Below the pieces are notes generated by a model that was given only the letters and a program-made list of their open reading frames with translations, had not been told where the DNA came from and ran no database searches. A DNA stretch of 64,000 nt from Candidatus Kaiserbacteria bacterium (lineage in GTDB: Bacteria; Patescibacteriota; Minisyncoccia; Phycocordibacterales; Phycocordibacteraceae): contig JACRFL010000002.1 in assembly GCA_016217905.1 (NCBI GenBank), forward strand, positions 18,817-82,816. Direction: 5' to 3'. Every line of letters starts with the position of its first letter. The first letter of the stretch is position 1. Positions 1-55,013 of the stretch are shown here, piece after piece. Both the position numbers and the translations under genes were made by a program.

Positions 1-216
1 CGATTGTAGCCGAGTCCTTGCCAAGTTTTGAGCACCTCGGAGAGCGGCGCAGCGGCAAGCTTCTTGGCTGTTGAAAATTTCTTAATGAACTTTCTATAAA
101 ACGGTATCACGCGCTCTACTTGGGTCTGCTGCAGCATGATTTCTGAAACAAGTATTTGATACGGGTCATGCGTTTCCCTCCAGGGCAAGCTATGCCGTCC
201 GAATTTTTTATAATGC
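1..216 (-). CDS. mutY: A/G-specific adenine DNA glycosylase MutY-like, N-terminal part (partial; continues past window start). Start codon uncertain (ATG at 216 or upstream GTG).
   Basis: Minus-strand translation gives ...MHYKKFGRHSLPWRETHDPYQILVSEIMLQQTQVERVIPFYRKFIKKFSTAKKLAAAPLSEVLKTWQGLGYNR. This matches the conserved MutY N-terminus (LPWQ...VWLSEVMLQQTQV..VIPYF..F..FPT...LA.A....V...W.GLGYY). Not in the ORF track because it is truncated by the window edge. Confidence 0.55.
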
Positions 217-247
217 ATCCACACCACGCGCCGAAAATGCGGTATCG

Positions 248-4799: not shown

Positions 4800-6191
4800 T
4801 CAAATCTTCTTTACCGAATCTTTCGTGATTTCCCACGTCTGACCGTAGTCGGGAACGATTGCGTTCCCGCCCAAGTAGTCGTGAATGCGCTGGGCGAGGA
4901 AGCGCTCCTCGGCGGGTTCGCCGATGGCGGTAAAGATGGCTTTCGTACGCCTCTCTGCAAGCGCCGCTTCGGCAAACTGGAGGAGTCCGTCGCGATCGGC
5001 GTGCGCCGACCAGCCCTCGAGCACCTCCACCTTCGCGTGCGCAACCACCTCTGCTCCGTTTATGCGTACCGTCTTCGCGCCCTCCTGGATGCGCCGCCCG
5101 GGGCTCCCGGGGGCCTGGTAGCCGACGATGATAAGCGTGGTCGCCGGGTCGGACAGGTACTGCGTCTCCCAGCGCCCGATGCGGCCGCCGTGGCTCATCC
5201 CCGCGCCAGCGATGATTATTTTCGGGTTCGGCGCCTTCTCTATCGACGCCGACTCTAAGCGTGAATTTGTCTTTGTGAGGAACGGGAATTCAAAAATGCT
5301 CCCTTCCCGCTTCATTTCATCCTCGGTCTCCGGCTTGAAATAGGTCATTCCCCACTTCTCGTAGACCTCCGTTACATGGATTGCAAGCGGCGAATCGAGA
5401 AAGACCGGAATCTGCGGAAGACTGTCTTCCGCAAAAAAGTTGGAGAGCTCGTAGAGCATGAGCTGGGTGCGCTCAAGCGAGAACGCAGGGATGAGGATCG
5501 TGCCGCCGCGGGCTATCGCGCGCACAAGCGTATCGCGCAGCGTCGCAACGCGCGCGCTCGACGGCGGGTGGATCCGATTGCCGTAGACGCTTTCCATCAC
5601 GAGCGCGTCCGCATCCTCTACCGGTTCCCAGTCAGGAAGAAGCGGCGAAGGCGAGTTGCCGATGTCGCCCGTAAGCGCGACGGCGACGCCCACCTCGTCT
5701 CTGATGCGCACGCTCGCGGAACCGAGGATGTGCCCGGTATTGCGCAGATACGCGGAGAGCCCGGGAGCGACCTCTTTTTCCGTATGGTACTCGAACGTTT
5801 CGATGAGCTTGAAGGTTTCCTCAACGTCTTTCTCCTCGTAGAGCGGTTCTCTGCCGCGGCGCGCGGCTTCCTCCGCGAGAATGCCGACGGAATCGCGCAA
5901 GATGAGTTCGGAAAGGTCCCTTGTCGGCGGCGTCATGTAAATTTTCCCGCCAAAGCTGTTCCGCACCAGCTTCGGGATACGGCCGACGTGGTCGAGATGC
6001 GCATGAGTCAGCACGAGCGCGTCGACCGTTTTCACATCGTACGGGAACGGCCCGTACACGCACTCCTCGCATAGGTGAGCACCCTGTTCGATGCCGCAAT
6101 CGACGAGAACTTTCCCGCGTGATCCCTCAATTAAAAAATTGGAACCGGTCACCTTCCCCGCTCCGCCGTAGAAACTAAGTCTGAGTGACAT
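4800..6191 (-). CDS. MBL-fold / beta-CASP family ribonuclease (RNase J/CPSF-like RNA-metabolising hydrolase)
   Basis: HAHLDH metal-binding motif. GG.GKVTGSNFLIE...VLVDCG N-terminus, plus beta-CASP region motifs. Confidence 0.75.
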   Translation of the reverse strand: MSLRLSFYGGAGKVTGSNFLIEGSRGKVLVDCGIEQGAHLCEECVYGPFPYDVKTVDALVLTHAHLDHVGRIPKLVRNSFGGKIYMTPPTRDLSELILRDSVGILAEEAARRGREPLYEEKDVEETFKLIETFEYHTEKEVAPGLSAYLRNTGHILGSASVRIRDEVGVAVALTGDIGNSPSPLLPDWEPVEDADALVMESVYGNRIHPPSSARVATLRDTLVRAIARGGTILIPAFSLERTQLMLYELSNFFAEDSLPQIPVFLDSPLAIHVTEVYEKWGMTYFKPETEDEMKREGSIFEFPFLTKTNSRLESASIEKAPNPKIIIAGAGMSHGGRIGRWETQYLSDPATTLIIVGYQAPGSPGRRIQEGAKTVRINGAEVVAHAKVEVLEGWSAHADRDGLLQFAEAALAERRTKAIFTAIGEPAEERFLAQRIHDYLGGNAIVPDYGQTWEITKDSVKKI

Positions 6192-6507
6192 GCTTATTGT
6201 ATAGATTACTATACAACCGCTCGTTCGGCGAACACGCAGCTATGCGGCATTGCCGTGTGCTGCCGCCTCACTTCGCGGCTGTAACGCCAATCGCCCTGTT
6301 TCCGAAGAAACAGGGCGATTGGCGGAGCCGTTCCCTAGTGCAACTTAATCTTGCCAGGTGGGGTTCCTGCGCGATGGCGTAGGAACGAATAAACGCTCGC
6401 ATTGCTACCGACGACCCGGAACCCCGAGAATTCGGCAAGTTGCGTTTTTAAGAACAGCTCCAGCCCCTAGTATACTCCTGCCGCGCAAAAGGCAAGGGAA
6501 AACTGAA

Positions 6508-6531
6508 AACGCAGCGCATTGCGTGGCTTTT
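6508..6531 (-). terminator. Putative intrinsic terminator downstream of map::ndk
   Basis: Minus-strand hairpin ACGCA-ATGCGC-TGCGT followed by UUUUCAGUUUUCCC. Confidence 0.3.
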
Positions 6532-6532
6532 T

Positions 6533-7903
6533 CTAGTCGCCGTGGCGTTTGTAGCTTTGGATTTTCTTCCCTCCAAACCAGTGATCAATCTCGTGTGCGG
6601 CTTCTTCCGGCGTTTCTGAAGCGTGGAGAATATTCGCTACGGCGCGCTTCTCTGCATTCGCAACCGCCGGTGAATCGTTGGAGAAATCTCCGCGGATGGT
6701 ACCCATATCGGCCTGGTACGGCATCGTCGGTCCGCAAATCTTGCGCACCATGTCCACTGCGTGTGTCCCTTCAACTACCATCTTCACGAGAGGCGCAGAA
6801 AGCATATAGTCTACGAGCCACTTCCGAATCTCGGGACCGATCTCTTCCGGCACCGTGGTGCCGAAGTCCGCCATCGCATCGAATTGGTATTTTTCGTACG
6901 TTACGAGCGTCTTCTCGCCAAGACGCCTAATCCACGCCGCGTCCTTAGGATAGTGGTTATCAACCTCTTCAAATGACGGTTGAAACATCTCGAGCGCAAC
7001 GATCTTGAGATCACGCTGTTCAAAACGCTTTATAACTTCGCCGATGAGGCCTTTCTTCACGCCGTCCGGCTTGATCATTACGTATGTCTTCTCTTCTTTC
7101 GGATTCTTGTTGGCCATGGTTTGAAAAATAAAAGCGCCTGCGGCGGTTATGATACGCGCCCCGCCCTTCTCAAGCAAGATGGTGTGTTCGAAGTGGGCGC
7201 TCCTCGAGCCATCCTTGGTGCGGTAGGTATAGCCGTCGGGAGCTAGGACAACCGCCGCTTTGCCCGCGCTCGCGATGGGCTCGAGCGCGAGCACCATGCC
7301 CTCGGTGAGCAACTCGCCCTTACCCGGGCGGCCGAAGTTCGGAATGAACGGTTCTTCGTGTACGAGGTCGCCGACACCGTGCCCGCCGAGTTCTCTCACC
7401 ACGGTGAATCCCGCCCGCTCAATCTCCTCCTGTATCGCGTGGGAAACATCGCCCATATGATTCCCCGGGACGGCCGCGGCGATGCCCGCCGCAAGCGCGG
7501 CTTCGGTCGCGCGCATAAGCTTCTTGGACACTTCGTCCACCGTGCCCACCGGTACGGTAATCGCCGCGTCGACGACGACGCCCGCGTGGCGCAGGCCGAG
7601 ATCGAGGCCGACGATGTCGCCCTCCTTCAGCGTCTTGGCCGACTCATTCGGAATACCATGCACGACTTCATCGTTAATCGAGACGCACAGCGTCGCCGGA
7701 TACGACCGTCCCGCGCCCTCGGGCGTGTAGCCGAGGAAGCAGGGATCATCGCCTCCGTCGCGGATAAGCCGCTCCGCGAGGTCGTCGAGCTCTTCGGCGG
7801 AAACGCCGGGCGCCACCTTCGCGCGAAGCGCTTTCAACACGGCCGCGAGGCGCTTCCCCGCCTCAATGAGGCTCGCCCGTTCGGTGTCGTTTGCGATTGT
7901 CAT
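6533..7903 (-). CDS. map-ndk: In-frame fusion of methionine aminopeptidase type I (N-terminal about 262 aa, 7118..7903) with nucleoside diphosphate kinase (C-terminal 194 aa, 6533..7117; an internal ATG sits at 7117)
   Basis: MAP metal ligands are present (DIVGLDLG..D, HGVGDLVHE, EHTILL). A linker AAGAFIFQT is followed by MANKN...YVMIKPDGVKKGLIGEVIKRFE...GTIRGDF...NILHASE (NDK catalytic His motif). There is no stop codon between them. Confidence 0.8.
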   Translation of the reverse strand: MTIANDTERASLIEAGKRLAAVLKALRAKVAPGVSAEELDDLAERLIRDGGDDPCFLGYTPEGAGRSYPATLCVSINDEVVHGIPNESAKTLKEGDIVGLDLGLRHAGVVVDAAITVPVGTVDEVSKKLMRATEAALAAGIAAAVPGNHMGDVSHAIQEEIERAGFTVVRELGGHGVGDLVHEEPFIPNFGRPGKGELLTEGMVLALEPIASAGKAAVVLAPDGYTYRTKDGSRSAHFEHTILLEKGGARIITAAGAFIFQTMANKNPKEEKTYVMIKPDGVKKGLIGEVIKRFEQRDLKIVALEMFQPSFEEVDNHYPKDAAWIRRLGEKTLVTYEKYQFDAMADFGTTVPEEIGPEIRKWLVDYMLSAPLVKMVVEGTHAVDMVRKICGPTMPYQADMGTIRGDFSNDSPAVANAEKRAVANILHASETPEEAAHEIDHWFGGKKIQSYKRHGD

Positions 7904-23885: not shown

Positions 23886-23939
23886 TCACCACGCGAAGTG
23901 GGCGAAGGCCTTGTTGGCGTCGGCCATGCGGTGCATCAT
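23886..23939. repeat. Relic duplicate of the rpsG 3' end (54 nt; about 48/54 identical to 24563..24616, all differences synonymous or in the stop codon)
   Basis: The minus-strand reading gives MMHRMADANKAFAHFAW*. The genuine S7 C-terminus is EMHRMADANKAFAHFAW*. Confidence 0.75.
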
Positions 23940-24172
23940 TTGCCTTGCAACAATTTCAAAAATTCATCCGCTGATATTTTCGCCTGCCTAAGAATGCTGG
24001 CCAAGTCCTTGCGTGATATATCGCGCGAATGACGCGGCACCGTTGCAAATCGTGTCGGATCAGCGGCGTGCCGTAGAAATACGTGACTTCCCTTCTGTCT
24101 AATAATCGTGAACCCCGCCTTAAGGAGCGCGGCGATGATTGTCGCCGCACGAAGCATCGGCAAAATGCTCAT
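23936..24172 (-). CDS. hicA: HicA-family toxin (mRNA interferase)
   Basis: LLKAGFTIIRQKGSHVFLRH...TVPRHSRDISRKDLASILRQAKIS matches the HicA consensus (..GF...RQKGSH......G...TVP.H...L..G.L.SIL.QAGL). Confidence 0.8.
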   Translation of the reverse strand: MSILPMLRAATIIAALLKAGFTIIRQKGSHVFLRHAADPTRFATVPRHSRDISRKDLASILRQAKISADEFLKLLQGK

Positions 24173-24468
24173 GCGTATACGGTAACTGGACCGGCTATTC
24201 TTGCAGTTTTACCCTTTCCGGTTATGTGTCCTTCATCATCAATAACTATTTTTCCGTCATCGAATGCAATTTCGCACAGTCCTTCAATAAGGTCATTCGC
24301 CATGTATTTTGCGTCAGCAAGAGTGGAACCTTGCGTCATTGTTTTTTGAAAGCTTGGGACTTCTACAAGATATAATTTGTCAGACCGGTCATACCATATG
24401 AGCGCATTAAAAATGCCATATTTAGTCTTGATAAGATATTTCCTTTTCATCCGCCAAGTATAGCACAA
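24169..24468 (-). CDS. hicB: HicB-family antitoxin (N-terminal RNase H-like HicB domain)
   Basis: KYLIKTKYGIFNALIWYDRSDKLYLVEVPSFQKTMTQGSTLADAKYMANDLIEGL is close to the HicB N-domain consensus. Overlaps hicA by 4 nt. Start may be the internal MKRKYL. Confidence 0.65.
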   Translation of the reverse strand: MCYTWRMKRKYLIKTKYGIFNALIWYDRSDKLYLVEVPSFQKTMTQGSTLADAKYMANDLIEGLCEIAFDDGKIVIDDEGHITGKGKTARIAGPVTVYA

Positions 24469-24562
24469 CGGCCAATTTTGATTACTACCAAGTGAGTGAG
24501 CGAAAAGAAATTCCTATTTCACTTTTCGAACGAACGCGGGGAGGAAGCTTTGTCCTCAAAGC

Positions 24563-38360: not shown

Positions 38361-38876
38361 TTATGCCCGCGACACGATGGTGAATGTACGCGGATCGTCG
38401 CACATGTCGGTGAATGCGTGCGCGGCTTCCCTTAATTTGCTTGACGAGGATTTGCCGAAGGCGATGACTTCAACCTGGCACCCTTCGTTGAGGTCGAGAT
38501 ACTGGATGAGCGGCACGAAGTCGCCGTCGCCGGTCACGAGAACGACGGTGTCGAGCTTCGGCGCGAGCTTCACCGCGTCGATCGCCATGCCGACATCCCA
38601 GTCGGCCTTCTTCGCGCCGTCGGCGAAGACCTGGAGGTCTTTCACCTTGGTCTCGATGCCCATCTTGGTAAGCGCTTCGAAAAAGTTTTTCTCCTCGCCG
38701 CTCTCCGTCGAGATAACGTACGCGATGGCGCGCACGAGGATGCGGCCGCCGACGGCCTCCTCGAGGATCTTTCCGAAGTTGACGCGCGCTTTGTAGAGAT
38801 GCTTCGCGCTGTGGTAGAGATTTTGCGTATCGATGAACACGCCGACGCGCTGGGCTGGATGTTTGATGACTGCCAT
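38361..38876 (-). CDS. NYN-domain (LabA/DUF88-like) putative RNase
   Basis: VGVFIDTQNLYHSAK...VLVTGDGDFVPL motif pattern of NYN/PIN-like domains. Start set at the internal MAVIKHP. Confidence 0.65.
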   Translation of the reverse strand: MAVIKHPAQRVGVFIDTQNLYHSAKHLYKARVNFGKILEEAVGGRILVRAIAYVISTESGEEKNFFEALTKMGIETKVKDLQVFADGAKKADWDVGMAIDAVKLAPKLDTVVLVTGDGDFVPLIQYLDLNEGCQVEVIAFGKSSSSKLREAAHAFTDMCDDPRTFTIVSRA

Positions 38877-39007
38877 ATAAATACAGTAAGTAGTTTGTAG
38901 GGAGTAGGTTGTAGAAAAATACAAAAACTCCCCGTGCTATTAAAATTCAGCGGCGTAGCCGCCACTCTCATACTACCCCCTACTCCCTATCCCCTACAAC
39001 CCTGGTG

Positions 39008-39274
39008 TTATTTCTTCAACCCCAATTTCTTGATAAGCGCATTGTAGCGGCGCTTGTCGGAAGTCTCAAGATAGCGCAAGTGAGAGCGGCGGTCGGCGAC
39101 CATCTGGAGCAGTCCCCGGCGGGAATGAAAATCCTTCGGGTTCTTCTTCAGATGCTTCGCAAGCTCGTCGATCTGCTTTGAGAGAAGCGCGACCTGCACA
39201 TCCGGCGAGCCGGTGTCCATGTCGTGCCGGGCGGTGCTTTTCATAACCGCCATCTTCTTCTTCGTGGTAAGCAT
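39008..39274 (-). CDS. rpsO: 30S ribosomal protein S15
   Basis: DTGSPDVQVALLSKQIDELAKHLKKNPKDFHSRRGLLQMVADRRSHLRYL. Confidence 0.9.
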   Translation of the reverse strand: MLTTKKKMAVMKSTARHDMDTGSPDVQVALLSKQIDELAKHLKKNPKDFHSRRGLLQMVADRRSHLRYLETSDKRRYNALIKKLGLKK

Positions 39275-39365
39275 GAGTAAAGCCACCTTACCACGCCTTG
39301 CGAAAATGTGCAAGTGACGCAGAACGCGATCTGCGCACAATATTCTGCGTTATACTACAGTTACG

Positions 39366-40286
39366 ATGAACGTCGAAAACGCGAAACGGCAATTTCTTGA
39401 ACACACCGAGATAGAGCGCGGCCGCGCAGTGAAGACCGTCGAGAACTACGACCGCTACCTTTCGCGCTACTTCGCGCAGATGGATATCAAAGACATCGGC
39501 GACATCAGCGAAGAGAGCGTCCGCGCATTCCGCCTTTGGCTCAACCGCCAGCCGGGAACGAATACCGACTCAATGAAGCGCCGCACGCAGAATTACTACA
39601 TGATCGCGCTCCGTGCTTTTTTGAAGTTCCTCCGGAAGCGCGATGTCGAGGCCATCAGTCCTGAGAAAATAGAGCTTGCGAAGCTCCCCGAGCGCCAGCT
39701 CGACCTTATTACCACGGCCGAGCTTGAGCGGCTTATGCAGGCGCCGCGGGAGGCGTTTGAAAAGGAAAAGGATCCCGATAAAGCAAGGAATTATTTGCGC
39801 GACCGTGCCATCCTCGAACTCCTCTTCTCGACCGGGCTGCGCGTGTCCGAGCTCTGTTCGCTTAATTCCGATATCGACCTATCGCGCGACGAGCTCTCGG
39901 TGCGTGGCAAGGGCGAGAAGGTGCGCGTCGTCTTCCTCTCGAGCGCTGCCAAGGAGGCGGTGCGGAATTATTTGAAAGCGCGAGACGACATGGAGGAAGC
40001 GCTCTTTGTCGACGGGCGGCCGAACAAGCTGCACCGCATTATCCCGCGTGACATCCAGCGGCACTTGAAGGCGTACGTCGCGCGCGCGGGCATCACAAGC
40101 GTGGTCACTCCCCACACCCTTCGCCACGCCTTTGCGACCGACCTGCTCTCTAACGGCGCCGATATCCGCTCGGTCCAACAGCTCCTCGGCCACGCCTCCA
40201 TCAACACCACGCAGATCTACACGCACATCACCGACAGTCATTTGCGAGAAATACACAAGAAGTACCACTCGCGTTCGAGAGGTTAG
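39366..40286 (+). CDS. xerD: Tyrosine site-specific recombinase XerC/XerD family
   Basis: N-terminal SAM-like core-binding domain. Catalytic region with R...HTLRHAFATDLLSNGADIRSVQQLLGHASINTTQIYTHI (R-H-R-Y). Confidence 0.85.
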   Translation: MNVENAKRQFLEHTEIERGRAVKTVENYDRYLSRYFAQMDIKDIGDISEESVRAFRLWLNRQPGTNTDSMKRRTQNYYMIALRAFLKFLRKRDVEAISPEKIELAKLPERQLDLITTAELERLMQAPREAFEKEKDPDKARNYLRDRAILELLFSTGLRVSELCSLNSDIDLSRDELSVRGKGEKVRVVFLSSAAKEAVRNYLKARDDMEEALFVDGRPNKLHRIIPRDIQRHLKAYVARAGITSVVTPHTLRHAFATDLLSNGADIRSVQQLLGHASINTTQIYTHITDSHLREIHKKYHSRSRG

Positions 40287-40338
40287 TGACACATACAATT
40301 TCAGAAACGGAAACGAAGAGGCGCCGCGTGCGCGGCGC

Positions 40339-40611
40339 CTAGTCATCATGCATTATTGCCCACTCCACTTCGCCTCGGTCGTCAAACCCGAAGCACAAAT
40401 AAATCTCTTCAAAACCGTAAGTCGGGAGACATTCGTTTGCGCAGTCGATGATGTCGAGCAACGGCACAACGAGCCTTCTCCCTTCTTGCTCGAGACCGAT
40501 AAGGATACTTTCGCTCGCCTTAGGATCGATTAGTATCCCCCAATTGCCGTAATCGGCGTCTTCGGATTCTTGCATGAACCCCACGAGCTCGCGGATCGTA
40601 AAAAGAGACAT
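40339..40611 (-). CDS. Hypothetical small protein
   Basis: ORF of 90-110 aa with no recognisable motif. Start ambiguous (40611 or 40671). Confidence 0.3.
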   Translation of the reverse strand: MSLFTIRELVGFMQESEDADYGNWGILIDPKASESILIGLEQEGRRLVVPLLDIIDCANECLPTYGFEEIYLCFGFDDRGEVEWAIMHDD

Positions 40612-40700
40612 AGTCACCTCGCGTGAATGAGCATCCGGACCCCACTTTACGCCAATATCACAACGAGGCAAGCCACGTCATTGCGGTATACAATAGCCGT

Positions 40701-41471
40701 ATGAAAATCGTCTCGTGGAATGTAAATGGTCTGCGCTCGCTCGCCAAGGACGGCTACTGGGAATCCTTCTTGAAGGGCATAAAGCCGGACATCTTCTGCT
40801 TGCAAGAGACCAAGGCGAACCCGGAGCAGCTCGGAGAGGAGTTCCTCTCTCCTGACGGCTACTCGGCATTTTTCTCCTCTTGCCGGGTACGCAAGGGTTA
40901 CAGCGGCGTCGCATTGTATTCAAAGATTGAGCCTCTCAAAGTTATTTACGGCCTGGGAATACAGGAATTTGACCAAGAAGGTCGCTTTATCGGCGCTGAA
41001 TACGAAGACTTCTGGCTCTTAAACGCGTACTTCCCCAACGCCGGTCAAGGCCCCGAGCGGCTTGATTACAAATTGCGTTTCTATGACGCCTTCCTCGCAT
41101 TCGCGGAGAAATTGCGCGAACAAAAGCCGGTCATTTTCTGCGGTGATGTGAACACCGCACACGAGGAGATAGACCTCGCCCGGCCCAAAGAAAATGACGC
41201 AAACACTGGCTTTCTCCCCGAAGAGCGCGCCTGGATAGACGAGGTCGTGAGCGCCGGCTACGTCGACTCCTTCCGCCATTTCCATCCCCACACCAAGGAG
41301 GCCTACAGCTATTGGGACTTGTTTACCCACGCCCGCGACAGAAACATCGGCTGGCGTCTCGACTACTTCTTCGTCGCGAGTGAATTTATAAAACATATTA
41401 AAAAAGCCGAGATCCACCCAGACATTTACGGCTCCGACCACTGCCCTGTCTCGATTACCATCTCTTCTTAA
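40701..41471 (+). CDS. xth: Exodeoxyribonuclease III (AP endonuclease, EEP family)
   Basis: MKIVSWNVNGLRS..., QETK, ..GDVN..H..IDL.., SYW and a C-terminal GSDHCP motif. Confidence 0.9.
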   Translation: MKIVSWNVNGLRSLAKDGYWESFLKGIKPDIFCLQETKANPEQLGEEFLSPDGYSAFFSSCRVRKGYSGVALYSKIEPLKVIYGLGIQEFDQEGRFIGAEYEDFWLLNAYFPNAGQGPERLDYKLRFYDAFLAFAEKLREQKPVIFCGDVNTAHEEIDLARPKENDANTGFLPEERAWIDEVVSAGYVDSFRHFHPHTKEAYSYWDLFTHARDRNIGWRLDYFFVASEFIKHIKKAEIHPDIYGSDHCPVSITISS

Positions 41472-41717
41472 TTATTTATACGTATACGTAGTATCGTTCC
41501 TTCGACCGACAAATTCGATTTTGACCGTGTTGTGTGTGGTATAAGAAAAAATGACCCGGATATCGCCCTTCCGCACGCGGTACATATTTTCCGTTCCTTT
41601 GAGTTTTTTCACATTCAACCCGATGAGATCATTGCGGCTTAAACGCGCGATTAGGATATTCAGAGATTCACGCTCCTTCTTTGTCAGTGAGTTGAGAAAT
41701 TTATTTATTTTTTGCAT
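41472..41717 (-). CDS. Type II toxin, RelE/ParE superfamily
   Basis: NMYRVRKGDIRVIFSYTTHNTVKIEFVGRRND matches YRVRVGDYRIIY...VGHR. Its stop codon abuts the xth stop. Confidence 0.7.
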   Translation of the reverse strand: MQKINKFLNSLTKKERESLNILIARLSRNDLIGLNVKKLKGTENMYRVRKGDIRVIFSYTTHNTVKIEFVGRRNDTTYTYK

Positions 41718-41970
41718 CGAATCGCTTCATTGCAGTAATAAATTTATCTATTGACATACCGCCTTCCTTTCTGAAATCGACAACCGTCTCCCAAGTGCCC
41801 TCGTCACCCCACTCGTCCACTGGGACCAGCTTGAAGACCGGCCGAGAGCGGCGTACGACCGTAAACGATTTGCCCTGTTCCGTCTGGCGAATATAGGTAC
41901 TCATATTCTCCCGGAGCTCCTTGAGCCCGATAATCCGCTGTACCTTTTTTGTTGCGATAGCCATATGCAC
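41701..41970 (-). CDS. Phd/YefM-family antitoxin
   Basis: IGLKELRENMSTYIRQTEQGKSFTVVRRSRPVFKLVPVDEW matches the Phd/YefM N-domain. Overlaps the toxin start. Confidence 0.65.
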   Translation of the reverse strand: MHMAIATKKVQRIIGLKELRENMSTYIRQTEQGKSFTVVRRSRPVFKLVPVDEWGDEGTWETVVDFRKEGGMSIDKFITAMKRFDAKNK

Positions 41971-42018
41971 GAAGTTTATCTAAAGATAATCTTCCCGTCA
42001 ATGGGTTATATACACGCC

Positions 42019-42067
42019 CACGACATTCTACGGCTCCGACCACTGCCCCGCCTCCATTTCGCTCTAA
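42019..42067. repeat. Relic duplicate of the xth 3' end (diverged; 26/27 nt core identity gacatt(c)tacggctccgaccactgccc, frameshifted by 1 nt, ends in TAA)
   Basis: Without the extra C it reads DIYGSDHCPASISL*. The genuine xth end is DIYGSDHCPVSITISS*. Confidence 0.5.
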
Positions 42068-48620: not shown

Positions 48621-50129
48621 TTATCGCGCAAATTCGACAACGCGGTTCTCGCGGATGATATTGACCTTGATTTCGCCCGGATATTTGAGCTCTTCTTGGA
48701 TGCGCTTGGCGATGTCGCGCGCAAGCGTGTGCATCGCGAGGTCGGAGACCTTGCCGGGGTTCACAAAGATGCGTATCTCGCGACCCGCGGCGATTGCATA
48801 GACTTTTTCAACGCCCTCAAAGGTCGCGGCAAGCCGCTCGAGGTCGCCGAGGCGCTCGAGATAGCGGTCCACCGTGTCGCGGCGTGCTCCCGGGCGACCG
48901 CCCGAGATAGCGTCAGCCACCTGTACGATGACCGCCTCCGGAGTTTCGTACGGGTACTCCTCGTGATGCGACTGCATCGCCTGTATCACGCGCGGGTCGA
49001 CCCCAAACTTCTCGAGGATGCGCCGCCCGATTTCGACATGCGTGCCTTGCACGTCGTGGTCGACCGCCTTGCCGATATCGTGGAGGAGGGCGCCCGCGCG
49101 CGCGACGCTCACATCCGCTCCGAGTTCCGTTGCGAGCATACCGGCGATATACGCCATTTCGACAGAGTGCGTAAGCACGTTCTGCCCGTAGCTCGTGCGG
49201 AAGTGGAGACGCCCGAGAAGCGCAACGAGCTTCGGGTCAAGTCCGATGACGCCCGTCTCGTAGGCTGCCGCCTCGCCCTTCTGCTTCACGATTTCCGCGA
49301 CTTCGGCGCGCGTTTTTTCAACCGTTTCTTCTATTTTCGCCGGCTGGATGCGGCCGTCGACGATGAGCTTTTCGAGCGCGATCTTGGCGATGGCGCGGCG
49401 CAGCGGATCGAAGGAGGAGAGGGTTATACGGTCCGGCGCGTCGTCGATGATGACATCGACGCCGGTCGCGCGTTCAAACGCCTTGATATTCCGCCCCTCC
49501 TTGCCGATGATCTTCCCTTTTACGTCCTCGGAGGGGAGCGCGACCGAGAGCGACATAACTTCGGCGTTGACCGCGTTAGCGAGACGGTGGATGACGCTCG
49601 TGAGGATGGCGCGCGCCTTATCCTCAAGGCGCTCGCGGCCGTGCGCGGCGAGTTTCTGCAGCCGCAGAAGGATCGCCTCCTCGTGCGCGCGCTCTATTTC
49701 GGAAAAGAGCTTCGCGCGCGCCTCCTCCTCGGAGAGATGTGCGACTTTCGCGAGTTCTTTGGAACGTTCTGCGGTAAGATTTTCCGCTTCGCTCTTCGCG
49801 CGCGCCGCTTCCTGTTCGCGCGCGCGGACTTCATTTTCTTTTTCATCAAGAAATTCTTCGCGGGAGGCGACACGCTCTTCTCGCGCGCCGATTTTTTCTT
49901 CGCGTTCTTCGATTGGCGCGAGGCGCTCGGTCTCAACGACCTCCGCGCGGAACTCGGCATCCGCGATAATCTTCGCCGCCGCCTCCTGCGCCTGGAGCAG
50001 TTTCCGCTTCGTGTCGAGTTCGACCGAACCGCGGCTTGCAAGGCCGATAAGGACGCGCAACACGTAGCCGAGTACCACGCCGCCGACGCCTGAAAGCGCG
50101 AGCATGATAAGTATGATTTTGAGTGACAT
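48621..50129 (-). CDS. rny: Ribonuclease Y
   Basis: N-terminal TM, coiled-coil, KH domain (IGKEGRNIKAFERATGVDVIID) and HD domain (LLHDIGKAVDHD). Confidence 0.9.
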   Translation of the reverse strand: MSLKIILIMLALSGVGGVVLGYVLRVLIGLASRGSVELDTKRKLLQAQEAAAKIIADAEFRAEVVETERLAPIEEREEKIGAREERVASREEFLDEKENEVRAREQEAARAKSEAENLTAERSKELAKVAHLSEEEARAKLFSEIERAHEEAILLRLQKLAAHGRERLEDKARAILTSVIHRLANAVNAEVMSLSVALPSEDVKGKIIGKEGRNIKAFERATGVDVIIDDAPDRITLSSFDPLRRAIAKIALEKLIVDGRIQPAKIEETVEKTRAEVAEIVKQKGEAAAYETGVIGLDPKLVALLGRLHFRTSYGQNVLTHSVEMAYIAGMLATELGADVSVARAGALLHDIGKAVDHDVQGTHVEIGRRILEKFGVDPRVIQAMQSHHEEYPYETPEAVIVQVADAISGGRPGARRDTVDRYLERLGDLERLAATFEGVEKVYAIAAGREIRIFVNPGKVSDLAMHTLARDIAKRIQEELKYPGEIKVNIIRENRVVEFAR

Positions 50130-50274
50130 ACGACGCCCGTTTTGTTAGCCCCGTCCCACAAGAGGGGGCGGGATAAAGTTCTAAAAAGGTGAGGGCGGTG
50201 AGGCGGTCGGGACAGTCAGTCAGCGAGGCGGTATGAGGGGACTGTAGCACAAACGAAGCGCGCCGGCGATAAGC

Positions 50275-50285
50275 GCGCAGTGTTT
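50275..50285. repeat. 11-bp direct repeat GCGCAGTGTTT (left copy; right copy at 51485..51495) bounding the AT-rich island
   Basis: Exact 11-mer at both boundaries. The left copy sits exactly where GC content drops. Both copies are the 3' arm of a GC hairpin. Confidence 0.45.
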
Positions 50286-50352
50286 TAGAAAATTAAGATT
50301 AAATCTAGTTTATAATCAACTATTAATAGCTTTACAATATATTTAAAAGTGG

Positions 50353-50381
50353 TTGACAATCAATAAACCAAGGAATACAAT
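50353..50381 (+). promoter_or_regulatory. Consensus-like sigma70 promoter TTGACA-17 bp-TACAAT for the island gene
   Basis: TTGACA at 50353..50358 and TACAAT at 50376..50381. The -10 element overlaps the annotated ATG, so the true start may be downstream or the transcript leaderless. Confidence 0.35.
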
Positions 50382-51417
50382 GGCCTTAATGAATCGAGAA
50401 ACTGAGGTATTACAGCTGGCAAAGCTGAAAAAAAGACTGAAAACTATGGATATTATGGATTCCTTTGGGATCTCGAGACAATATGCCGTTGTCCTAGTCA
50501 ACGACCTAATATCAAAAGGTAAATTGGTTAAGGTTGGTTCAACAAATAGAGCTTACTATTTGTTACCAGAATCAGCCGACGAGGCCGGGGCATTCCCTAC
50601 ACGGATTTCTAAACGGCTAAAAAATGTAGGGCTCCAAGAGCACGAAATTTATGAAGATATTCAAAACCAATATCCTCCCGTCAAACGCGTTTCTGAAAAT
50701 GTCAGAAGTATTTTTAATTACGCATTCTCTGAAATATTAAACAACGCAATTGAGCACTCGCAATCAAAATATATAGAAGTTGAGGTATCTGTTCAAAACC
50801 GCAAATTGCGTTTTATCATCAACGATTTCGGAATCGGCGTGTTTCGTAACATCATGAAAGAAAAAGGATTGAGAACAGAAGTGGAGGCAATGCAGGACTT
50901 GCTGAAAGGAAAGACCACCACGATGCCGAAATCTCATTCAGGTCAAGGCATATTCTTTACGTCAAAGGCGGCCGATGTGTTTACACTTCAAAGCTACGGA
51001 TATATTTTAACGATAAATAACAAGATACACGAGGTCTCATATAAAATCCTTCCCGCTCTTAAAAGAGGTACGCGAGTTAGTTTTTCAATTGACGTTAATT
51101 CCCCGCGACATCTGAGCGTTATCTTTAGGAAATTCAGTGTCGGTACAGAATTTGCATTCAACAAAACAGAAATAAAAGTGAAGTTGTACGCTTCTGGCGA
51201 CGGAATCCACGTATCCAGATCTCAGGCACGACGTATTTTGGAAGGATTAGATAAATTTGAATCTATAATTCTCGATTTCGATAAGGTGCCGACAATTGGA
51301 CAAGCGTTTGCAGATGAAGTTTTCAGGGTTTTTAAAGAAAAGTATCCAAATATTGAAATCCAACCAGTAAACATGGATGACGCAGTTCGTTTTATGGTCG
51401 AAAGAGTCGGTAAATAG
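50380..51417 (+). CDS. Winged-helix HTH + GHKL-type (HATPase_c, anti-sigma/serine-kinase-like) ATPase + C-terminal STAS-like (DUF4325-like) domain protein
   Basis: N-box E..NNAIEHS. G1 box INDFGIGV. G2 box SGQGIFF. N-terminal wHTH (LQLAKLKKRLKTMDIMDSFGISRQYAVVLVNDLISKGKLVKV). C-terminal about 90 aa domain. AAGGAA RBS. Confidence 0.6.
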   Translation: MALMNRETEVLQLAKLKKRLKTMDIMDSFGISRQYAVVLVNDLISKGKLVKVGSTNRAYYLLPESADEAGAFPTRISKRLKNVGLQEHEIYEDIQNQYPPVKRVSENVRSIFNYAFSEILNNAIEHSQSKYIEVEVSVQNRKLRFIINDFGIGVFRNIMKEKGLRTEVEAMQDLLKGKTTTMPKSHSGQGIFFTSKAADVFTLQSYGYILTINNKIHEVSYKILPALKRGTRVSFSIDVNSPRHLSVIFRKFSVGTEFAFNKTEIKVKLYASGDGIHVSRSQARRILEGLDKFESIILDFDKVPTIGQAFADEVFRVFKEKYPNIEIQPVNMDDAVRFMVERVGK

Positions 51418-51462
51418 AGGACTTGAGCTGCAACTTCGCGAAATCCGACTTCGTGGGAAACG

Positions 51463-51495
51463 AAACACTGCGCCGACGAAACCGGCGCAGTGTTT
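51463..51495. terminator. Hairpin with 13-bp stem (AAACACTGCGCCG-ACGAAAC-CGGCGCAGTGTTT), a probable bidirectional terminator between the island gene and clpP
   Basis: Perfect inverted repeat; U-rich tract follows on the minus (clpP) side. Confidence 0.5.
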
Positions 51496-51508
51496 CAGTG
51501 CTGTTTCG

Positions 51509-52081
51509 TCAATTAAAAACCTTGTCGACGAGACCGTACTTCTTCGCCTCCTCGGCGGTCATGAAGAAGTCGCGCTCGACGTCCTTCTCGATCTTCGCGA
51601 GCGGCTGGCCGGTATTCTTCGAGAGGATCTTGTTCAGCACGGCGCGCAGCTTCAAAATCTGCTTCGCGGTTATCTCGATGTCGGTGGCCTGACCCTCGGC
51701 ACCGCCGTGCGGCTGGTGGATCATCACTTCGGCGTTCGGCAGCGCAAAACGCTTGCCCTTTTCTCCCGCAGAGAGGAGAATCGCCGCGCCGGAGGCCGCC
51801 ATGCCGACGCACACCGTCGAGACATTCGGCTTCACGTGATTCATCGTGTCGGCCATCGCAAGGGTCGCGGTAACCGAGCCGCCCGGACTGTTGATGTAGA
51901 GCGAAATGTCCTTCTTCGGGTCCTCGGCTTCAAGGAAGAGGAGCTGCGCGATGACGAGATTGGCGACATCGTCATCAATAGGGCCGCCGAGAAAGACGAT
52001 GCGTTCCTTGAGGAGGCGCGAGTAGATGTCGTACGCGCGCTCGCCGAATTGGCTCTTCTCGATAACCATCGGGACGAGCAT
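51509..52081 (-). CDS. clpP: ATP-dependent Clp protease proteolytic subunit
   Basis: Ser region GMAASGAA, His region MIHQPHGG and Asp of the catalytic triad. [11 protein letters not shown]-terminal region. Confidence 0.95.
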
Positions 52082-52135
52082 AGATGCGCGGGGTGAAGAT
52101 TTCATAGGTAAAAGGTTAAAGATAAAATGTCAGAA

Positions 52136-52851: not shown

Positions 52852-54234
52852 CTACTCGTCTTTTGCCTTGTCGCGGTCTTCTCCGGCGTCCGCAACGGTC
52901 TCATCGCTCGAGGGGAGAGCGGCGAGTTCTTCTTCGGCGGGAAGCTCGGTTACTTGCGGGGCCTCGTCGGTAATTATCTCCACGCTTTCGGTCGGCATGA
53001 CGCCCGCCGCTTCGGCGGGCTGCTCCTCGCCGTTTACAACAGCGACCGTTGTGCCATCGGATTCCGCGACTTCCGTACCGGCGGCGGACACGATGTCGAT
53101 ATTCCATCCCGTGAGCTTCGCGGCAAGGCGGACGTTCTGTCCGCCGCGACCGATGGCAAGCGACTGCTCGTCTTCGGCGACGGTCACGGTGGCGCGGTGA
53201 TCCGCTTCATCAAGGACGACCTCGATCGGGGTGGCGGGCGAGAGCGCTTCCTTCACGAACTCTTTCGCGTCGTCGTTCCATTCGATGATGTCAATGCGTT
53301 CGCCGCCGAGCTCGCTCATCACGGTCGAGACGCGCACGCCGCGCTGGCCGACCAAGGAGCCGACCGGGTCGACATGCGCATCGAGCGAGGCGAGCGCTAT
53401 TTTGGTGCGGCTGCCCGGCTCGCGCGCGAGCGCTTTTACTTCGATAGCGCCTGAGGCGAGCTCCGGCGCTTCCATCTCGAAGAGCTTCACGACGAAAAGA
53501 GGATGCGCGCGAGAGAGCCGCAGGTACACGCCGCGGAAGCCTTCGTCCACCGCGTAGAGGTACGCGCGGATGCGCTCGCCGATGCGGTACCGCTCGCCGG
53601 GGATCTGCTCCTCGTAGGGGATGATGCCGGTCGTGCGCCCGAGATCGATGAAAAGAGCTCCCCGCTCCATGCGCTGGACGGTGCCGCTTACGATCTGCCC
53701 CTTCTTCTCGCCGAACTCCTCCATCATCGAGAGCTTCTCGGCTTCGCGCACCTTCTGGATGACCACCTGCTTGGCGGTCTGCGCCGCGATGCGGCCGAAG
53801 TCGTCCTGCGGCTCAAGCGGGAAGATGATCTCCTCGCCGACCTCCGCGCCACGCTTCATCAACCTCGCGTCGGCCAGAAGAATGTGCTTCTCCGGATCAA
53901 AACGCGGAAGCTCTCCCTCGGCTAAATCATGTTCTGCATGATCGCCCGACCATCCGCCGCGCGGATGGTGTAGAGCGAGATGTTCTTCCGCGACCACCTC
54001 ATCCGGGGCGGGGAAGCGCACCGTCGTGTCGTCCGCCACCGTCTTCACCTGCTCAAAGGAGATGGTGCCCGTGTTGAGGTCGAGCTTGGCGCGCACGACC
54101 TGCCCGCGCTTGCCGTATTCGCGCTTGTAGGCGGTTGCCATCGCGCTCTCGATAGCCTCGACCATCGTGGCGCGGCTGATCCCGCGGTCTTCAAACTCCC
54201 CGAGCACTGCATTGATGGTCTTTAAATCAATCAT
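52852..54234 (-). CDS. nusA: Transcription termination/antitermination factor NusA with an acidic C-terminal tail
   Basis: N-terminal domain (INAVLGEFEDRGISRA...), S1 domain, two KH domains (GSLVGQRGVRV; AIGRGGQNVRLAAKLTGW). Start at the internal MIDLKT. Confidence 0.9.
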   Translation of the reverse strand: MIDLKTINAVLGEFEDRGISRATMVEAIESAMATAYKREYGKRGQVVRAKLDLNTGTISFEQVKTVADDTTVRFPAPDEVVAEEHLALHHPRGGWSGDHAEHDLAEGELPRFDPEKHILLADARLMKRGAEVGEEIIFPLEPQDDFGRIAAQTAKQVVIQKVREAEKLSMMEEFGEKKGQIVSGTVQRMERGALFIDLGRTTGIIPYEEQIPGERYRIGERIRAYLYAVDEGFRGVYLRLSRAHPLFVVKLFEMEAPELASGAIEVKALAREPGSRTKIALASLDAHVDPVGSLVGQRGVRVSTVMSELGGERIDIIEWNDDAKEFVKEALSPATPIEVVLDEADHRATVTVAEDEQSLAIGRGGQNVRLAAKLTGWNIDIVSAAGTEVAESDGTTVAVVNGEEQPAEAAGVMPTESVEIITDEAPQVTELPAEEELAALPSSDETVADAGEDRDKAKDE

Positions 54235-54376
54235 ATGGAATGTGTATGTCGCACTGTTTATAAAGAAAGCCCCGTTGGGGCATTCAGGTGGGGAGAAGTA
54301 TATCAAACCTACTTTGGGTGTCAACAATGGCTGAGAGGGTATATACTGGGCGCACTTATTCATTAACTACAGACAC

Positions 54377-54640
54377 ATGGCTGAAGGACTGCAGGAAGGA
54401 TCGTGGGAGGAACAAAAGAGAAACCTGGACAAGAATCCAGATTTTCACATGGACACGAGCAAGGAAGTCGACCCGGTAGAAAGGCTTGTCGAGCAGTTGG
54501 GATGGGAAGGCGCGCTGGAGCGTGTCCAAGAGAATCTTGATAAAAATCCCAATGACGAAGAGGCTCGTCGGCAGGCGAATCTTATGGTCAATCTTATGAA
54601 CAAAAAAATGCAGGGGCTGAGGGATAAACTAAGCCACTAA
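54377..54640 (+). CDS. Small hypothetical acidic protein (87 aa) in a lower-GC stretch
   Basis: ORF only; helical/charged; about 45% GC. Confidence 0.3.
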   Translation: MAEGLQEGSWEEQKRNLDKNPDFHMDTSKEVDPVERLVEQLGWEGALERVQENLDKNPNDEEARRQANLMVNLMNKKMQGLRDKLSH

Positions 54641-54710
54641 AACTCGGAATACGTTTCGTGTGTGCAATGCGCGTCCAGCCACAGGCCGGACGCGCTATAC
54701 TGTACTCTCT

Positions 54711-55013
54711 ATGCCCGGTATGACAACTTCGGATAAAAACTTTCACTATGTCTATGTGCTTGAAAGCGCATCGGATGGTAAGCGATATATCGGGATGACT
54801 GCGGATCTACGCCGACGGTTCCAAGAGCATCAAAAAGGTAAAAGTTTTGCTACGGCTCCGCGGCGGCCTTTCTCGCTCATTCACTACGAAGCAGGTCGGT
54901 CGTATGTAGACGCCAAGAACCGCGAGAAGTATTTCAAGACAACGGCAGGCCGCCGCTCTCTTGCAAGGCGACTTCGAGATTACGTCGAAAGGCGTGATCC
55001 GAAGTTGTCATAA
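54711..55013 (+). CDS. GIY-YIG nuclease-domain small protein
   Basis: FHYVYVLESASDGKRYIGMTADLRRRFQEH (GIY...YIG with the Arg/Glu catalytic residues). Confidence 0.7.
   Translation: MPGMTTSDKNFHYVYVLESASDGKRYIGMTADLRRRFQEHQKGKSFATAPRRPFSLIHYEAGRSYVDAKNREKYFKTTAGRRSLARRLRDYVERRDPKLS

Follow-up and report, generated by a model that had tools for sequence, protein, structure and literature searches.

The window analysed here, a 64-kb stretch of a Candidatus Kaiserbacteria genome, contains an AT-rich islet of ~1.2 kb between rny and clpP, with a single gene, here called X, between its flanking repeats (Table 1). The islet has 37–39% GC in a genome of 59% GC; as an earlier note on this DNA had described, GC drops near position 50286 and recovers near 51420, and in 200-nt windows it changes from 0.53–0.66 outside to 0.33–0.45 within about 50286–51420. 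Among 600-nt windows of the 64 kb it has the lowest GC (0.367; next lowest 0.453), and its tetranucleotide correlation with the host is −0.13, far below that of the host windows (mean 0.835, minimum 0.328). The dinucleotide relative-abundance distance is unremarkable, with 24 of 202 host windows equal or higher, and failed as a discriminator of the islet. A departure from the host signature, raised in the earlier note, thus holds for tetranucleotides but not for dinucleotides, and the anomaly is therefore mainly one of base composition. No RNA family was found in the islet region with Rfam. The host is a tiny, groundwater-type bacterium.

Table 1. Features of the islet, its flanks and a second cassette, in coordinates of the window.
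Feature	Position	Strand	Description	Basis
Second cassette	41427..42065	+	Same junction signature as the islet; 3′ end of an Exo_endo_phos gene (41427–41463) repeated at 42029–42065	
ParE-like ORF	41472–41717	−	Inside second cassette	Pfam
Phd/YefM antitoxin	41701–41970	−	Inside second cassette	Pfam
rny (RNase Y)	48621..50129	−	Core gene, left flank of the hotspot, transcribed away from the islet	Pfam RNase_Y_N, KH_1, HD
Putative rny promoter −10 region	50241..50250	−	TGCTACAGT (minus strand), directly adjoining the relic terminator arm; empty sites have the same layout	
Left repeat copy	50251..50288	+	Decayed clpP terminator relic; 11-mer at 50275–50285 (+)	Alignment to right copy
X promoter and putative operator array	50309..50381	+	Phased repeats and −10 element TACAAT at 50376–50381	
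Gene X	50389..51417	+	342 aa: wHTH ~1–58, SpoIIAB/VapK-like GHKL ATPase/kinase ~72–235, DUF4325 STAS-like ~259–341	
Right repeat copy	51458..51498	+	Bidirectional terminator with 14-bp stem at 51462–51496, common to X and clpP; 11-mer at 51485–51495 (+)	
clpP	51509..52105	−	Core gene, right flank of the hotspot, convergent with X	Pfam CLP_protease, 7e-84

The ATG at 50389 is the start conserved in homologues, and the resulting product is the same as NCBI's P0001. Pfam matched X to DUF4325 and HATPase_c_2, the former (PF14213) with 53.7 bits (gathering cut-off 23) and an E value of 1.8e-14 over residues 282–336 (in a 345-aa numbering of X). In the AF2 model the STAS-like domain has a beta-alpha-beta-alpha-beta-alpha fold, and the GHKL domain, with a profile match, a Bergerat fold and N, G1 and G2 boxes, has SpoIIAB and RsbW as its nearest structural relatives. 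The winged helix, Bergerat-fold ATPase and DUF4325-type module assigned in the earlier note were thus all correct by Pfam profiles, AF2 model and structure comparison. Across 134 diverse family members, residues E115, N118, N119, H123, D146, G148, G150, T177, T178, H183, G185 and G187 are 96–100% conserved; on this alignment the ATP site of the family is invariant. Mean column identity is 61% and dN/dS is 0.034. X is conserved across 650 or more clusters (50% identity) of the library searched, with all named close homologues belonging to Patescibacteria. Neither a recombinase-like domain (Pfam, fold comparison) nor a nuclease, TIR, PIN or membrane effector domain (Pfam) was found in X.

GHKL-kinase/STAS pairs have recently been shown to link DNA damage with the expression of immune genes and the release of toxins (Chambers et al., EMBO J 2026, PMC13373217); CapKS controls immune-operon expression, with CapS an autoregulating wHTH-STAS repressor under GHKL kinase control, and VapKSC confers protection of about 2-log (PMC13373217). 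VapK/VapS and CapK/CapS are the closest characterised relatives of X, which we rate as an uncharacterised one-chain variant of this kind, a putative DNA-binding kinase switch. VapS (2.7e-17) and the C-terminal domain of X both belong to DUF4325 and align with each other (hhalign E 0.003), the GHKL domain aligns to VapK from N box to G1 box (hhalign E 1.8e-5), and the two share a (K/N)TT lid motif. However, X is one polypeptide with an extra N-terminal wHTH and places GHKL before STAS, whereas VapK has STAS before GHKL, and in contrast to the three-gene operon vapK-vapS-vapC with its PIN nuclease, X occurs on its own in Patescibacteria, with no VapC/PIN partner (none of 15 loci has an adjacent PIN gene). 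All modules of CapK/CapS, namely HTH/wHTH, GHKL kinase and STAS, are present in X, but in the order wHTH-GHKL-STAS as opposed to HTH-STAS-GHKL in CapK and STAS-wHTH in CapS; hhalign gave short, weak matches to these proteins in the wHTH (E 1.1e-3, probability 20%) and the N box/G1 region (E 2.8e-3, 11%), and neither CapK nor CapS matched DUF4325. CapK and CapS are also encoded by two adjacent genes upstream of an immune operon and use palindromic operators, whereas X is a single gene with direct repeats, usually without a downstream operon and with none in the window.

A further difference lies in the STAS-like domain. Profile alignment with SpoIIAA yielded nothing usable, and the acceptor site was instead read from the hhalign alignment with VapS, in which the acceptor Ser48 falls on Gln305 of X; among the 134 family members position 305 is Gln in 99% and position 306 is Gly or Ala in 96%. 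The STAS domain of X therefore cannot be a canonical phospho-acceptor, and the CapS/VapS mechanism does not apply to it literally. The kinase-plus-STAS unit that the earlier note likened to partner switching survives as an analogy to VapK/VapS and CapK/CapS, without the canonical acceptor. A kinase and a STAS module merged in one chain lacking the acceptor serine would predict a different switching logic, for which a pseudo-substrate, an ATP-state switch and alternative acceptors (Ser276, Ser278 or Thr260) are candidates.

The structural proximity to SpoIIAB and RsbW, together with the JGI annotation of homologues as 'anti-sigma regulatory factor (Ser/Thr protein kinase)', might also indicate a housekeeping anti-sigma regulator that controls a sigma factor by partner switching. 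We regard this as very unlikely: in 15 genomic contexts no PP2C phosphatase, separate antagonist or adjoining sigma factor gene was seen near X (the sole sigma-type match being a short Sigma70_r4_2 ORF ~2.3 kb off in L001), and most relatives have an empty site. Unlike the SpoIIAB-SpoIIAA and RsbW-RsbV pairs, moreover, X has a predicted DNA-binding domain of its own with putative operator repeats, and its STAS domain shares one chain with the kinase, lacks the acceptor serine and has no detectable sequence similarity to SpoIIAA.

Upstream of X, the consensus TTGACA-17-TACAAT promoter reported earlier is present at 50353–50381 with an 11/12 match in the promoter scan. Only 7 nt lie between its −10 element and the start codon, so the X mRNA is probably leaderless. 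The promoter is part of an array composed of a degenerate TTTATAAT (50309), TTTACAAT (50331–50338) and TTGACAAT (50353–50360), the last of which forms the −35 element. The repeat TT(T/G)ACAA occurs two to five times upstream of X in 14 of 15 loci, overlapping the promoter, with 126-fold enrichment, strand specificity and 11/22-nt phasing, and is thus inherited together with X; the single exception is the 5′-truncated copy in L001. Such promoter-overlapping, phased repeats suggest that X is autoregulated. Since the repeats coincide with promoter hexamers, however, they might be stacked promoter elements and not operators. Within the 64 kb, TTKACAAT is confined to the X promoter region, which rules out a regulon inside the window and would make X a solo autoregulator without an obvious output.

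At the islet edges, the 11-mer GCGCAGTGTTT occurs in both places given by the earlier note, with a hairpin partner at 51463–51473 (minus strand), and nowhere else in the 64-kb window (0.01 expected). This 11-mer is only part of a longer, 38/41-nt imperfect direct repeat (local alignment score 35; null maximum 27) that is near-perfect in L001, where the copies are 37/40 identical. The 11-mer is thus no discrete target-site duplication or att core but the best-preserved part of an imperfect duplication, ~40 nt long, of the clpP terminator; none of the other clpP-rny loci contains it, which rules out a conserved att core. The right copy is a strong terminator in both directions (−26.8 and −27.4 kcal/mol, z −5.2 and −5.8), whereas the left 'hairpin' has a 7-bp stem (−14.4 kcal/mol, z −1.3) and is no better than shuffled sequence; of the two GC hairpins described previously, only the right one therefore stands, with a stem of 14 bp instead of 13. 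The rny-proximal arm of the left repeat matches the terminator of the empty site in L006, and the block TTTGTG(c/a)TA(c/g)AGTCCCCTCATACCGCC, which comes after the one terminator of the empty sites L006, L008, L009 and L011, is kept at the islet, where the sequence contiguous with the relic arm may contain the −10 region of the rny promoter.

The two flanking genes are adjacent in 70 related species, and rny is 66–89% identical across 80. In ~50 of the 70, including the nearest relatives L006–L009 and L011, the search for an empty site that the earlier note had proposed returned a clpP-rny gap of 85–350 bp with one terminator, and no remnants of X were found in these empty sites. Other species carry alternative cargo in the gap, specifically toxin-antitoxin pairs, a YafQ/ParE toxin, TrmB, NUDIX, a MurA-like enzyme, a zeta-toxin-like kinase and GIY-YIG, which makes the gap a hotspot. 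The empty sites, alternative cargos, foreign composition and flanking repeats together support the earlier view of a single-gene accessory islet at a conserved junction. Hairpin duplication was also considered as a general feature of cargo at this gap and was rejected, as the two terminators of the other cargos are unrelated.

The arrangement rny-X-clpP, in the same orientation, recurs in three other genomes, L001, L002/L003 (an ENA/NCBI and a Logan assembly, respectively) and L042. An abrupt switch in composition within a metagenome-assembled genome could arise from a chimera of assembly or binning, but recovery of the same arrangement in independent assemblies from different samples, with host-derived repeat sequence at both junctions, makes this explanation extremely improbable. 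A 269-aa gene adjoining X in L002 was considered as TrmB-like, for which Pfam gave no support.

Compared with the L001 copy, X of the window has a dS of about 1.4 and a four-fold identity of 0.505, equal to the 0.50–0.56 of the flanking genes, yet its GC4 is 0.38–0.42 against 0.71–0.86 in host genes. The earlier description of X as foreign and unameliorated thus holds for its AT-richness, but X is not a simple recent arrival, as its synonymous divergence equals that of the flanks and the same site is occupied in three other genomes. The persistence of a GC3 of 38% over roughly one substitution per synonymous site, in a genome with GC3 of 70–80%, cautions against taking low GC as a sign of recent transfer. 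Synonymous divergence of this kind fits long vertical residence or repeated transfer alike, and X might accordingly be an old, vertically inherited and often lost resident of the gap, its AT-richness a gene-specific equilibrium (through weak selection or biased gene conversion and low expression) and its repeats a duplicated terminator. The shared site and orientation in the window and the three other genomes, X identities that track those of the flanks in two comparisons (91.5% vs 87–94%; 79% vs 74–88%), a GC4 that is still low at this dS and the partial amelioration of X in L042 (GC4 0.65) are all consistent with such a history. It would nevertheless require a dozen or more clean losses that left no remnants, and X occupies another hotspot in close relatives and is surrounded by target-derived repeats at unrelated sites, a tRNA gene among them. 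In addition, the 37/40 identity of the L001 repeat copies is hard to reconcile with an insertion as old as a dS of 1.4, and we consider vertical residence unlikely.

X-bearing genomes are scattered over the rny+clpP tree, and L004 and L086, whose flanking proteins are 80–92% identical to those of the window, carry X at a different hotspot, after an exonuclease gene. X was AT-richer than its host in 10 of 10 loci measured. Significant flanking target duplications are present in 6 of 15 X loci (the window, L001, L086, L097, L098 and L099) and span 34–78 nt, from an exact 34-nt tRNA-Arg half in L098 to 78 nt in L099, with copies often 8–30% diverged; the other nine loci have no significant flanking repeat. 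The repeats differ at every site, no att core is shared among the X loci, no dif-like sequence was recognised, and no integrase, transposase or recombinase gene lies between the islet repeats, although a Xer-like recombinase gene adjoins the second hotspot. The same junction signature marks a second cassette within the window, of toxin-antitoxin type, which is its second-lowest GC stretch and is flanked by a 37-nt direct repeat of 84% identity with a 20-nt exact core (score 55; null maximum 26). Integrase-less elements with att-like repeats include cis-mobilisable elements, Xer-dependent IMEX and dif modules. The X cassettes resemble these in their small, recombinase-free cargo, their target-derived direct repeats, their use of gene 3′ ends or tRNA genes and the empty sites in relatives, but their repeats vary by site, share no common core and are linked to no recombinase.

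The patchy distribution, AT-richness and mobility of X, along with a promoter that looks tightly autoregulated, raise the possibility of a self-contained defence, abortive-infection or addiction module, in which a kinase effector or toxin would be restrained by the pseudo-substrate STAS domain and wHTH autorepression and released by an infection or DNA-damage cue. The nearest characterised relatives regulate or constitute anti-phage systems (PMC13373217), toxin-antitoxin modules occupy the hotspot in other genomes, and in L100 alone X directly precedes an MmeI-type restriction-modification gene and overlaps its start, recalling CapK/CapS upstream of immune operons. We nonetheless find this reading, which the earlier note had suggested, doubtful and without direct support: none of the PADLOC-DB 2.0.0 defence models matched at E ≤ 1, effector domains are missing as described above, no neighbour of X is conserved across 15 contexts, and the high conservation of the family is unlike that of fast-evolving defence genes. 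Phage copies, for which the earlier note had proposed a search, and plasmid copies were likewise not found, with no relative in IMG/VR and no tblastn match in 50,697 phage records and 72,556 plasmids; viral matches were at the level of domains only (phrog_3364 in PHROG, viral folds and a phage DUF4325 protein matching the STAS-like domain), and a phage origin of X was rejected on these searches.

With moderate confidence, we favour a reading of the islet as a small cassette with horizontal mobility and of X as a one-polypeptide, autorepressing and ATP-switched relative of VapK/VapS and CapK/CapS. The cassette would consist of ~100 nt of promoter/operator and one gene, and would lodge at the 3′ end of clpP in a cargo hotspot of Kaiserbacteria-like genomes. 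Insertion would have placed the cassette between two copies of the clpP terminator, of which the clpP-side copy now probably terminates both clpP and X, while the rny-side copy would have decayed until the 11-mer was what both still share. Integration may have proceeded through a recombinase acting in trans or a homology-directed single crossover of an excised circle. The N-terminal winged helix is predicted to bind the phased repeats over its own −35 and −10 elements and so to repress X, with the putative ATP-dependent GHKL domain and tethered STAS domain switching DNA binding or oligomerisation and the non-phosphorylatable STAS serving as pseudo-substrate or as a sensing surface. If X behaves like CapK and VapK, it could be triggered by a stress cue, for example single-stranded DNA.

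A broader proposal, which we consider quite unlikely, is that X represents a Patescibacteria-wide class of one-protein stress, ssDNA or phage sensors or addiction proteins without a separate effector, which would move with toxin-antitoxin cassettes between a few hotspots and duplicate 34–78 nt of the target end in the process, through a recombinase-free or trans-mobilised mechanism not described so far. It is conceivable, though remotely so, that X itself takes part in mobility, as the phased repeats lie near one cassette end like arm-type sites. The target-end duplications at X and at toxin-antitoxin cassettes offer a handle on the movement of small cassettes in genomes with few recognisable mobile elements, and X is one of the few candidates for a signal-responsive regulator among these uncultivated, reduced bacteria. 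In a metagenome scan with X, the matches L088–L091 proved to be spurious matches to a LysR regulator, and two true relatives, L086 and L087, were recovered.

The islet, the low-GC stretch between rny and clpP that holds the lone gene X, has the lowest GC within the 64 kb: in a window of roughly 59% GC, values fall to 0.33–0.45 from ~50286 to 51420, confirming the abrupt drop described in the earlier note. The foreign composition claimed there held for tetranucleotides, the islet profile being anticorrelated with the host (r = −0.13, vs. a host mean of 0.835 and minimum of 0.328), but not for dinucleotide relative abundances, which showed nothing unusual relative to the host. The 11-mer reported at both edges (GCGCAGTGTTT) was indeed found in the window solely at 50275 and 51485 and as a complementary hairpin arm at 51463 (0.01 expected), and is the longest exact run within a longer alignment of the edges (50251–50288 with 51458–51498; 38/41 nt; score 35, null maximum 27). 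Hairpins had also been proposed at both edges; in predicted folds, the one beside clpP is a strong bidirectional terminator, whereas the one beside rny is no different from shuffled sequence. Because the left copy has an rny-proximal arm of the host type, represented by the close relative L006, the flanking repeat is a duplicated clpP terminator with a functional clpP-side copy and a decaying rny-side copy, and the 11-mer is its vestige.

Features of the window, of X and of the compared loci (L-numbers, relative genome loci)
Feature	Locus	Coordinates	Strand	Description
rny	Window	48621–50129	−	Pfam-confirmed; left flank of islet
X	Window	50389–51417	+	342 aa
clpP	Window	51509–52105	−	Pfam-confirmed; right flank of islet
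X, wHTH	Window	Residues 1–58		AF2 model
X, Bergerat fold	Window	Residues ~72–235		AF2 model; disordered lid 175–186
X, STAS-like	Window	Residues 259–341		AF2 model; beta-alpha-beta-alpha-beta-alpha
NYN-rpsO-Xer-like tyrosine recombinase-exonuclease block	Window	38361–41471		Conserved; recombinase 39366–40286
Exo_endo_phos gene	Window	40623–41471		Target of second mini-islet
Second mini-islet	Window	41427–42065		Phd/YefM antitoxin and ParE-like ORF, both on minus strand; GC ~0.45
Alternative gap cargo	L029; by eye L017, L022, L026, L028			YafQ/ParE toxin and upstream small ORF
Alternative gap cargo	L028			TrmB regulator
Alternative gap cargo	L074			NUDIX
Alternative gap cargo	L033			MurA-like enzyme
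Alternative gap cargo	L058			Zeta-toxin-like AAA_33 kinase
Alternative gap cargo	L015			GIY-YIG protein
X flanks	L086			63 nt of Exo_endo_phos gene 3′ end on both sides, plus third partial copy
X flanks	L097			~65-nt repeat; score 74
X flanks	L098			Exact 34-nt copy of tRNA-Arg(CCT) 5′ half
X flanks	L099			78 nt of Xer-like recombinase gene 3′ end

A scan for RNase Y with one genome per species yielded 80 Kaiserbacteria-like loci, and clpP and rny could both be placed in 70. The empty rny-clpP site anticipated by the earlier note is common: the two genes are just 85–350 bp apart, with one hairpin each, in ~50/70 placed loci, including those most closely related to the window (L006, whose rny is 89% identical, L007–L009, and L011). 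Their order is clpP stop, single GC hairpin, TTTGTG(c/a)TA(c/g)AGTCCCCTCATACCGCC, and rny; the L006 hairpin folds strongly (−30.2 kcal/mol, z −5.8). Other gaps hold alternative cargo, or else X, which occupies the gap in one orientation throughout in the window, L001, L002/L003 (79% identical), and L042 (78%). These four X-bearing loci are scattered on a neighbor-joining tree of rny and clpP, each having neighbors with an empty or differently filled gap, and a search of all 80 loci detected no remnant of X. The clpP-rny gap is a genuine cargo hotspot, in which X is accessory. Independent assemblies have the identical rny-X-clpP arrangement, and an assembly chimera is therefore ruled out.

The putative rny promoter is immediately adjacent to the clpP terminator, and the rny 5′ leader (window 50130–50250, minus strand), which spans ~110 nt, is conserved among relatives and includes the GC hairpin CCCGCCCCCTCTTGTGGGACGGGG, had no match in Rfam. 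In the rny leader region of L011 (~5760–5900) and L015 (~960–1090), long inverted repeats (ACACCACATTTGGCATCGTGCC ... GGCACGAnCACAATAATGCCAAAAGTGGTGT) mark an insert of ~130 nt between terminator and leader, which might be a structured RNA or else MITE-like; the GIY-YIG ORF of L015 is in the same region.

Flanking repeats were also found around X elsewhere, with unrelated targets in L086, L097, L098, and L099, although nine X loci had no significant repeat. In L001 they span 40 nt and are 37/40 identical, each copy being a perfect 15-bp-stem hairpin, and the copies differ solely by an inverted 3-nt loop; this near-identity favors a more recent event in L001. Three different exonuclease-gene C-terminal coding ends lie in series around X in L086 (4800–4900, 6030–6095), which suggests successive insertions at one gene end. 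In L098, X is flanked by an intact tRNA-Arg(CCT) (442–517) and the copy of its 5′ half (1822–1855), an unusual duplication since with integrative elements it is usually the 3′ half of the tRNA that is copied. The L099 repeat has an AT-richer gene-attached copy (GC 0.45 vs. 0.55 in the displaced copy). Compared between sites, the repeats have no common core sequence, and the X cassette contains no recombinase; candidate mechanisms of integration would be a recombinase acting in trans or an excised circle entering by a single crossover directed by homology. The islet is best read as an accessory cassette, small and mobile, in a hotspot.

The window also contains a second mini-islet, a ~560-bp lower-GC insert after the Exo_endo_phos gene, flanked on both sides by 37 nt repeated from the 3′ end of that gene (84% identity, 20-nt exact core), the gene-attached copy having an AT-richer tail and the displaced copy being GC-richer. 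The block that ends with this gene is common to the window, L004, L086, and L099, and in the latter three X stands at its end; in L004 and L086, block proteins are 80–92% identical to those of the window, and X takes the place of the toxin-antitoxin insert. The block thus marks a second cargo hotspot, adjoining a resident recombinase gene, and because L004 and L086 carry X where the window carries the toxin-antitoxin insert, one clade draws small cassettes from a common pool and places them in at least two hotspots. Further low-GC stretches of the window (0.46–0.47) are at 23900–24500 and at 54200–54800, the latter after nusA and holding an 87-aa ORF (54377–54640) with no Pfam family. Downstream of nusA in L001 (9961–12924) are two DNA methyltransferase genes and an HNH gene, which may be another variable region, of restriction-modification type; in the window, compared with L001 indirectly, a short unannotated ORF alone was seen beyond nusA.

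The composition of X does not simply reflect a fresh arrival. GC3 is 0.38 in the window X vs. 0.68–0.80 in neighboring genes, yet the window and L001 copies of X differ by a dS of ~1.36 (dN/dS 0.034), and their four-fold-site identity (0.505) equals that of rny, clpP, and nusA (0.50–0.56). GC4 of X is nevertheless still 0.38 and 0.42 in the window and L001, vs. 0.71–0.86 in host genes. These values fit either X copies acquired separately from an AT-rich pool and diverging in parallel, or an X that resists amelioration. As to whether relatives carry X at host-like GC, a point raised in the earlier note, X was AT-richer than its host by 0.03–0.20 in 10/10 loci measured, but the L042 copy is partly ameliorated (GC4 0.65). 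The L001 copy (5968–6924), otherwise intact and 91.5% identical to the window X, directly abuts the terminator copy, lacks the promoter/operator and ~20 N-terminal codons, and may be a recently disabled copy.

The three domains proposed for X were borne out by Pfam, with matches above cut-offs to DUF4325 (1.8e-14), HATPase_c_2, and HATPase_c and weak matches to wHTH families, and by an AF2 model from 35 homologs (pLDDT 80.6, pTM 0.64). The family is large and rigid, with >6,900 clusters detected at the 90% identity level and 650 at the 50% level having E ≤ 1e-30; mean column identity is 61%, and nearly all members listed are ~335–360 aa; all top matches with taxon-specific names are Patescibacteria. 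Among 134 diverse members, ATP-site residues are 96–100% conserved, Gln305 is 99% conserved and followed by Gly or Ala in 96%, and Thr260, Ser276, and Ser278 are the only conserved Ser/Thr of the STAS domain. DUF4325 is scarcely mentioned in the literature searched.

The closest characterized systems are CapK/CapS and VapK/VapS/VapC, in which a GHKL kinase activated by ssDNA phosphorylates a STAS protein at a conserved serine, whereupon the CapS wHTH repressor leaves DNA or the PIN toxin is freed from VapS-VapC (PMC13373217). Published sequences of CapK, CapS, VapK, and VapS from that paper were compared with X. Like the C-terminal domain of X, VapS belongs to DUF4325 (2.7e-17); its residues 29–96 align to the X family profile, and the VapK kinase aligns from N box to G1 (E 1.8e-5), while CapK and CapS gave weak matches. 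The phospho-acceptor Ser48 of VapS falls on the nearly invariant Gln305, and X is therefore a wHTH joined to a VapK-like kinase and a VapS-like STAS domain from which the canonical acceptor has been removed. Because both operon structure and acceptor serine differ, X is filed as a variant of the CapKS/VapKSC kind rather than a member, namely an uncharacterized single-chain variant of kinase-STAS signaling modules, and very probably acts as a DNA-binding switch that is ATP-dependent and autoregulated.

Upstream of X, the predicted TTGACA-17-TACAAT promoter was found at 50353–50381. ATG 50389 is the best choice of start since the NCBI model and homolog N-termini agree, and the mRNA is probably leaderless because the promoter ends 7 nt 5′ of this codon. 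The 130-nt region preceding X contains, in 14/15 loci, 2–5 copies of TT(T/G)ACAA, all on the coding strand at 11- or 22-nt spacing, overlapping the −35 and sometimes the −10 and enriched 126-fold vs. the rest of those loci; the exception is L001, where the promoter is lost. In the window the motif occurs at the X promoter only, and L087, with a 44% homolog, has a palindromic variant. The helical phasing and co-inheritance with the conserved wHTH suggest cooperative autoregulation of X; alternatively, the array could be read as a stack of promoter-like hexamers.

The likeness to single-gene defense or abortive-infection islands drawn in the earlier note gained no direct support: X had no match in PADLOC, and no copies were found in phages or plasmids. 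No conserved neighbor was seen across the 15 contexts examined, which include CPSase/OTCase genes, pilus genes, rplS with tRNAs, Pif1, and Fe-S cluster genes, among others; in L004 and L099, X is near the Xer-like recombinase. A defense or addiction role would be plausible by association. The sole context examined in which X resembles the first gene of a defense operon is L100 (4001–7805), where the X stop and the start of a 914-aa MmeI-family type IIL restriction-modification gene overlap.
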